Assembly (NCBI RefSeq): GCF_057098645.1
Contig: NZ_CM169472.1
Direction: 5' to 3' (one strand)
DNA length: 64,000 bases
Shown here: positions 39,101 through 42,100 of the stretch, one piece after another
Layout: each line of letters begins with the position of its first letter
How positions within the stretch are numbered: the stretch's first letter is position 1
Made by a program: the position numbers

Positions 39101-42100
39101 AGAACTGAACGAATACCAGCAAAACGTTCAGCGCAGCCTCGATATCCAACAGCGTAGCGTTCAACAATTAGCGAACACTATTGTAAATAGTCTTATTCAA
39201 TATGACGATCCTGCAGCATGGACTGAGCAGGAGCAATTATTGAAACAAATGACGGTAGAGAATGTTAACACTGCCGTTAAACAATATCTTTCTCATCCGG
39301 TAAATACTTATACCGGAGTATTATTGCCAAAATAATAACAGCCCCGTCAACACATCGTTGGCGGGGATTTTAGCAATATTCGCTATTTTTATGTAATAAT
39401 TTTATAAATGCGTTCAAAATAATAACCAAGTACTAATAGTGATATTTTAAGGTCTGATTTTTACGTGATAATTCAGGAGGCACAGAAAGCGCATAAAAAT
39501 AACAACATAAAACACCTTACCACCACCCAAGAGCCCCCTACTATATTGTTTTTCAATGAAAAAATATTATTCACGCAATATCTCACGATAAATAACATTA
39601 GGATTTTGTTATTTAAACACGAGTCCTTTGCACTTGCTTACTTTATCGATAAATCCTACTTTTTTAATGCGATCCAATCATTTTAAGGAGTTTAAAATGG
39701 ATAAGAAGCAAGTAACGGATTTAAGGTCGGAACTACTCGATTCACGTTTTGGTGCGAAGTCTATTTCCACTATCGCAGAATCAAAACGTTTTCCGCTGCA
39801 CGAAATGCGCGACGATGTCGCATTTCAGATTATCAATGACGAATTATATCTTGATGGCAACGCTCGTCAGAACCTGGCCACTTTCTGCCAGACCTGGGAC
39901 GACGAAAATGTCCACAAGTTGATGGATTTATCCATTAACAAAAACTGGATCGACAAAGAAGAATATCCGCAATCTGCAGCCATCGACCTGCGTTGCGTAA
40001 ATATGGTTGCCGATCTGTGGCATGCGCCTGCGCCGAAAAATGGTCAGGCCGTTGGCACCAACACCATTGGTTCTTCCGAGGCCTGTATGCTCGGCGGGAT
40101 GGCGATGAAATGGCGTTGGCGCAAGCGTATGGAAGCTGCAGGCAAACCAACGGATAAACCAAACCTGGTGTGCGGTCCGGTGCAAATCTGCTGGCATAAA
40201 TTCGCCCGCTACTGGGATGTGGAGCTGCGTGAGATCCCTATGCGCCCCGGTCAGTTGTTTATGGACCCGAAACGCATGATTGAAGCCTGCGACGAAAACA
40301 CCATCGGCGTGGTGCCGACTTTCGGCGTGACCTACACCGGTAACTATGAGTTCCCGCAACCGCTGCACGATGCGCTGGATAAATTCCAGACCGACACCGG
40401 TATCGACATCGACATGCACATCGACGCCGCCAGCGGTGGCTTCCTGGCACCGTTCGTCGCCCCGGATATCGTCTGGGACTTCCGCCTGCCGCGTGTGAAA
40501 TCGATCAGTGCTTCAGGCCATAAATTCGGTCTGGCTCCGCTGGGCTGCGGCTGGGTTATCTGGCGTGATGAAGAAGCGCTGCCGCAGGAACTGGTGTTCA
40601 ACGTTGACTACCTCGGTGGTCAGATTGGTACTTTCGCCATCAACTTCTCCCGCCCGGCGGGTCAGGTGATTGCACAGTACTATGAATTCCTGCGCCTTGG
40701 TCGTGAAGGCTATACCAAAGTACAGAACGCCTCTTACCAGGTTGCCGCTTATCTGGCGGATGAAATCGCCAAACTGGGGCCGTATGAGTTCATCTGTACG
40801 GGTCGCCCGGACGAAGGCATCCCGGCGGTTTGCTTCAAACTGAAAGATGGTGAAGATCCGGGATACACCCTGTACGACCTCTCTGAACGTCTGCGTCTGC
40901 GCGGCTGGCAGGTTCCGGCCTTCACTCTCGGCGGTGAAGCCACCGACATCGTGGTGATGCGCATTATGTGTCGTCGCGGCTTCGAAATGGACTTTGCTGA
41001 ACTGTTGCTGGAAGACTACAAAGCCTCCCTGAAATATCTCAGCGATCACCCGAAACTGCAGGGTATTGCCCAACAGAACAGCTTTAAACATACCTGATAA
41101 CGTTTAACGGTAACGGTGTCCCGAAACGAACCCGTTTCGGGACAATTTCCAAAGTCTGTTCACTGGCATTAGCAACGGAAAATATTGTTCTGAATACGCT
41201 TCAGAACAAAACAGGTGCGGTTCCGACAGGAATACCGTTTTAGGGGGATAATATGGCTACATCAGTACAGACAGGTAAAGCTAAGCAGCTCACATTACTC
41301 GGATTCTTTGCCATAACGGCATCGATGGTAATGGCTGTTTATGAATACCCTACCTTCGCAACATCGGGCTTTTCATTAGTCTTCTTCCTGCTATTAGGCG
41401 GGATTTTATGGTTTATTCCCGTGGGACTTTGTGCTGCGGAAATGGCCACCGTCGACGGCTGGGAAGAAGGTGGTGTCTTCGCCTGGGTATCAAATACTCT
41501 GGGGCCGAGATGGGGATTTGCAGCGATCTCATTTGGCTATCTGCAAATCGCCATTGGTTTTATTCCGATGCTCTATTTCGTGTTAGGGGCACTCTCCTAC
41601 ATCCTGAAATGGCCAGCGCTGAATGAAGACCCCATTACCAAAACTATTGCAGCACTCATCATTCTTTGGGCGCTGGCATTAACGCAGTTTGGTGGCACGA
41701 AATACACGGCGCGAATTGCTAAAGTTGGCTTCTTCGCCGGTATCCTGTTACCTGCATTTATTTTGATCGCATTAGCGGCTATTTATCTGCACTCCGGTGC
41801 CCCCGTTGCTATCGAAATGGATTCGAAGACCTTCTTCCCTGACTTCTCTAAAGTGGGCACCCTGGTAGTATTTGTTGCCTTCATTTTGAGTTATATGGGC
41901 GTAGAAGCATCCGCAACCCACGTCAATGAAATGAGCAACCCAGGGCGCGACTATCCGTTGGCTATGTTACTGCTGATGGTGGCGGCAATCTGCTTAAGCT
42001 CTGTTGGTGGTTTGTCTATTGCGATGGTCATTCCGGGTAATGAAATCAACCTCTCCGCAGGGGTAATGCAAACCTTTACCGTTCTGATGTCCCATGTGGC

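Follow-up and report, generated by a model that had tools for sequence, protein, structure and literature searches.

The GAD box of the gadBC and gadA promoters of Escherichia coli K-12 was reportedly described by Castanie-Cornet and Foster in 2001. It spans 20 bp, has its centre 63 bp before the transcription starts of gadA and gadBC, and lies 16 bp upstream of the -35 hexamer; Castanie-Cornet et al. (2010) identified it as the site of an RcsB/GadE heterodimer, binding of which was shown for gadA of K-12 (PMC2887963). Purified MBP-GadE alone gives no protection of a genuine GAD box, RcsB also being needed, and earlier reports of binding by GadE only were ascribed to RcsB contamination; a G-to-C point mutation at a conserved G of the box (M1) abolishes both binding and GadE-dependent activation (PMC2887963). 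At K-12 gadBC the GadE ChIP-exo peak has its centre at -62.5, and deletion of gadE lowers gadB by log2 6.44, a GadE dependence of approximately 87-fold (PMC4918353 supplement). The genes gadB and gadC are co-transcribed, and a further element, the RcsB box, is located directly upstream of the -10 hexamer and is kept at gadB except for a C in place of a G at its left end (PMC2887963).

The same operon is also controlled, from the same intergenic region, by the AraC-family proteins GadX and GadW. Their binding sites in the gadBC regulatory region were reportedly described by Tramonti et al. in 2006 and 2008. In K-12 both proteins bind this region and activate gadBC modestly (PMC4918353; PMC3050690), and deletion of gadX lowers gadB by just log2 0.60 (Seo et al. 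2015, PMC4918353). A 42-bp consensus exists for these sites besides the GadX/GadW motif, AKGKCTGWTWTTWWYMYVAK. The motif differs from the GAD box, and GadX in K-12 gives gadBC peaks with centres at -184, -225 and +66, positions that come from the ChIP-exo supplement of PMC4918353 and are not DNase I footprints. GadXW box and GAD box are likewise drawn as separate elements in PMC2887963.

Results

We analyzed a 64-kb stretch of contig NZ_CM169472.1 (64,000 nucleotides, referred to here as the window), in which the 20-mer TTAGGATTTTGTTATTTAAA is found exactly, on the + strand, at 39598-39617. It is the sole match in the window when up to three mismatches are tolerated, a search for which 0.01 matches are expected from shuffled sequences. 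The gadB ATG is at 39697, with 79 nt intervening between it and the end of the box, so that the original prediction of an intact 20-mer about 80 bp before the start codon is borne out. Alignment with the K-12 gadA and gadB promoters, which had been suggested as a check, gives 20/20 identity to the boxes upstream of both genes, and thus a canonical box in a canonical position.

The distances of the box to the -35 hexamer, the transcription start and the ATG are also those of K-12 gadBC and gadA. Its centre, 39607.5, lies at -62.5 from a start site placed by K-12 orthology, 16 nt separate it from the -35 hexamer TTGCTT, and it precedes a glutamate decarboxylase gene, gadB, followed by gadC. The sequence agrees with the GAD-box consensus, also at the conserved G residues, where mutation does away with binding (PMC4918353, PMC2887963), and is more conserved than the intergenic DNA that flanks it. 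Taken with the exact match and the K-12 identity, these features indicate that the 20-mer is almost certainly the orthologous GAD box of the E. coli gadBC promoter, an upstream activator site predicted to be bound by RcsB/GadE.

There are zero differences from K-12 gadB in the alignment from -93 to the ATG, a stretch that spans the box, the -35 hexamer, the RcsB box, the -10 hexamer, the 5' UTR and the Shine-Dalgarno sequence, and all 13 substitutions relative to K-12 lie farther upstream. The gadA and gadB promoters of K-12 themselves align gap-free from box to ATG. A 501-bp query around the promoter is 100% identical to many O145:H28 chromosomes, in which it is annotated as lying between pqqL and gadB; pqqL upstream and gadB-gadC downstream are also the arrangement of K-12.

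By orthology with K-12 the gadB transcription start is placed at 39670 (+/-1 nt, + strand), a position back-calculated by two routes, from the primer names F/gadB-173 and R/gadB+77 (PMC3050690) and from the GadE ChIP-exo centre at -62.5 (PMC4918353). The inferred -35 hexamer, TTGCTT, is at 39634..39639 on the + strand, as indicated by the 16-bp box spacing at gadA (PMC2887963), the gapless gadA/gadB alignment and K-12 identity, and the inferred -10 hexamer, TACTTT (39657..39662, +), has a 17-bp spacing from it, lies 7 nt upstream of the start site and is likewise identical to K-12. A putative RcsB (repressor) box, CGATAAATCCTA, can be placed on the + strand at approximately 39647..39658, just upstream of the -10 hexamer or overlapping it, with boundaries that are approximate. 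This placement follows the description in PMC2887963, the element is conserved across Escherichia, and the G/C difference in the gadA/gadB alignment falls at its left end. A generic sigma-70 scan did not pick up the gadB promoter, which is uninformative because this promoter is weak and activator-dependent and a miss is to be expected.

Both genes of the operon are intact. The glutamate decarboxylase B gene, gadB (39697..41097, +), encodes 466 aa, of which 465 are identical to K-12 GadB, and the product is identical to GadB of O145 RM9872; gadC (41253..42788, +) encodes a glutamate:GABA antiporter of 511 aa, 510/511 of them identical to K-12 GadC. The window also contains ydeP, safA and ydeO, which are part of the EvgA-YdeO-GadE acid circuit, and all five genes are intact and identical to the O145 reference. 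The gene lists spanning the 64-kb window do not include gadE, rcsB, gadX, gadW or rpoS, and because these lie outside it we infer regulation here from the intact cis element. Retained cis-control is a reasonable reading because the box is canonical in sequence and place, the core promoter is K-12-identical, and gadB and gadC are intact.

The 112-bp segment that begins 10 bp before the box and ends at the ATG is at least 99% identical in 4214 of the 5406 matching complete E. coli records, and 95-99% identical in a further 1188. In the less identical alleles that were inspected the changes sit just outside the box, and the box itself is invariant in five diverse E. coli alleles. Searching one genome per species (100,044 species; 298 Gb) for the exact 20-mer recovered Escherichia only, apart from three chance matches in metagenome-assembled genomes, one of Lentisphaeria and two of Bacteroidales, with no similarity beyond the 20-mer. 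The Escherichia genomes are two E. coli-named representatives, E. albertii, E. whittamii and Escherichia sp. E1V33, and in every case the 20-mer is at a constant distance from a gad gene. Escherichia sp. E1V33 and both genomes named E. coli carry it twice, ahead of a gadA-type gene and again ahead of a gadB-type gene. In the E. albertii and E. whittamii representatives it is present only upstream of a gadA-type gene (with an MDQKLL/MEQKLL start).

Among nine Escherichia gadA and gadB promoters the box is invariant and keeps a fixed distance from the ATG, the -35 hexamer and the RcsB box are conserved, and the bases flanking the box diverge, a pattern that reads as a clear phylogenetic footprint. 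Retention of the box in the window is consequently not remarkable, being the state of the species at large. A counter-example is provided by E. coli MSI001 (NZ_CP076645.1), in which the gadB GAD box is followed after approximately 7 bp by an inserted ISKpn26 (IS5-like) element; the insertion parts the box from the -35 hexamer and shows the form that a genuine loss of this control would take.

The K-12 GadX peaks at -184, -225 and +66 map to 39466-39506, 39425-39465 and 39716-39756 of the window, and none of them covers the GAD box. A scan for AKGKCTGWTWTTWWYMYVAK with up to two mismatches gives a single match in the window, AGGTCTGATTTTTACGTGAT at 39450..39469 on the + strand (-220 to -201), which has one mismatch, is situated approximately 130 bp upstream of the GAD box and falls within the GadX peaks that K-12 shows at -225 and -184. 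This match is statistically weak, with 0.36 expected by chance and 32 of 100 shuffles giving a match, and it is invariant in five E. coli alleles. The GAD box at 39598-39617 has neither a match to AKGKCTGWTWTTWWYMYVAK with up to two mismatches nor any overlap with a K-12 GadX peak. The described GadX/GadW sites thus differ from the 20-mer in motif, in the proteins that bind and in position (approximately -220 to -165 and +66, versus -62.5), and the conserved motif match suggests that GadX/GadW input probably persists too, through an element separate from the 20-mer.

The original prediction set the box against surrounding genome decay, which is overstated. Apart from three insertions the window is collinear and gap-free with E. 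coli O145:H28 RM9872 at 99.94-99.97% identity, with approximately 23 substitutions outside the insertions, and 33 of the 35 mapped reference CDS are intact, only ydeQ and yddA being newly disrupted. A Shigella-like or decaying-genome context is rejected on this near-identity (about 99.95%), with no indels bar the three mobile elements, and on the count of intact CDS; the mobile-element load is modest and not a Shigella-like decay.

All three insertions have intact terminal repeats and target-site duplications. An IS2-like element of 1052 bp at 7177-8228, which keeps its two terminal repeats and has a duplication of 5 bp (TATAG), lies in an autotransporter gene that was already a frameshifted pseudogene in O145:H28; the element is absent from the nearest relatives, and an internal deletion shortens its orfB to 208 aa. 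At 19845-23632 a 3788-bp Tn3-family element encoding a transposase and a recombinase (tnpA/tnpR) has inserted into the 3' end of ydeQ, a fimbrial gene, approximately 420 bp before the start codon of ydeP; its inverted repeats are 38 bp long and its target duplication is TTTAA (5 bp). The third, an IS5/ISKpn26-like element of 1196 bp at 31939-33134 with the duplication CTAA, interrupts the ABC-transporter gene yddA. Neither the Tn3-family nor the IS5-like insertion was found at these sites among 5,426 complete E. coli genomes. The window strain is a close relative of O145:H28 RM9872 in which there has been recent transposition.

The interrupted yddA is three genes upstream of gadB. Near-identical copies of the Tn3-family element are mostly on plasmids of other E. 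coli, with several in strain Z1323HEC0422. Pseudogenes common to O145:H28 are present at approximately 5457-11690 and 12200-13200 of the window and comprise the frameshifted autotransporter, a hipA remnant beside an intact hipB, and the remnant of a helix-turn-helix gene. These shared pseudogenes were there before the three elements inserted and are a probable source, in part, of the earlier impression of decay.

Discussion

The expectation that gadBC remains under GadE, GadX and GadW control can be kept in part. A canonical GAD box, a core promoter identical to that of K-12 and intact gadB and gadC all favor retained control of the operon, but the box is the site of RcsB/GadE and not that of GadX and GadW. 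That these two act through the GAD box itself is a reading to which we give a very slim chance. They do bind the gadBC region and do modestly activate it in K-12, yet their motif is unlike the box, its sole match in the window is well upstream, the K-12 GadX peaks are not at -62.5, and the two kinds of box are separate in PMC2887963; we reject it on the positions of the ChIP-exo peaks and the motif scan. Still less probable, to the point of being negligible, is a chance match in AT-rich DNA that has no regulatory meaning. The three unrelated metagenome-assembled genomes show that exact matches do arise by chance across 298 Gb, but a single window is expected to contain far fewer than one even at three mismatches, and the 20-mer is in the orthologous position of a promoter otherwise identical to that of K-12 and is invariant across Escherichia gad promoters with variable flanks. 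Orthology and conservation rule this explanation out.

It is somewhat easier to imagine, although still very improbable, that the box is intact and idle, gadE, rcsB or rpoS having been lost or mutated elsewhere so that gadBC is no longer activated through it. These trans-acting factors are absent from the gene lists of the whole window, and since mobile elements have recently inserted at least three times in these 64 kb, further insertions elsewhere in the genome are conceivable. Against this, the O145:H28 strains to which the window is most closely related are ordinary, acid-resistant E. coli, the five acid-resistance genes in the window are intact and unchanged from the O145 reference, and the promoter is without sign of relaxed selection, having no changes between -93 and the ATG. 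We favor a functional GAD box, a known regulatory element that is real, correctly located and in its default conserved state, and no feature of the sequence speaks against this.

Given functional gadE and rcsB elsewhere in the genome, we infer that the K-12 behavior (start site, proteins bound and GadE dependence) carries over to the window strain. An RcsB/GadE heterodimer would bind the box at approximately -62.5, 16 bp upstream of a weak -35 hexamer, and once bound would recruit or stabilise RNA polymerase; glutamate decarboxylase (gadB) and the glutamate/GABA antiporter (gadC) would be switched on in stationary phase and at low pH. Failure of GadE to bind in footprinting had been offered as an observation that would refute this control, but it is an unsound test, since MBP-GadE alone fails on a genuine GAD box and RcsB is required (PMC2887963).

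The strain thus keeps the standard cis-regulatory wiring and the intact genes of the main extreme-acid-resistance operon of E. coli. As this is the default state, shared by over 99% of the complete genomes of E. coli, its significance is small beyond correct annotation, and the useful outcome is a corrected reading in which the box is a sign of control by RcsB/GadE and not by GadX/GadW, and a GadE-only footprint is an invalid test.

Between -244 and -94 the window differs from K-12 by its 13 substitutions, at -244, -190, -182 and -165, at seven positions from -137 to -127, and at -97 and -94. Four of them are inside K-12 GadX ChIP-exo peaks. The patch at -137 to -127 is GC-enriched in the window and, one base aside, is common to O157:H7, as are the changes at -97 and -94, and for this reason the upstream variation is for the most part a natural allele of the lineage (O145:H28, close to O157:H7) and not decay. 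The substitutions could quantitatively alter the inputs of GadX, GadW and H-NS, and we regard it as unlikely that the lineage allele changes H-NS silencing or the GadX/GadW input of gadBC. If it did, gadBC of this EHEC-related lineage would be tuned unlike that of K-12, with the RcsB/GadE switch unchanged. The patch itself (39533-39543) is a hypervariable 11-bp segment between the GadX peaks and the GAD box, in surrounding DNA that is otherwise conserved; it reads GCCCCCTACTA in the window, ATTTCATATTG in K-12, GCTCCCTACTA in O157:H7 and ATTCTCTATTA in ECONIH2.
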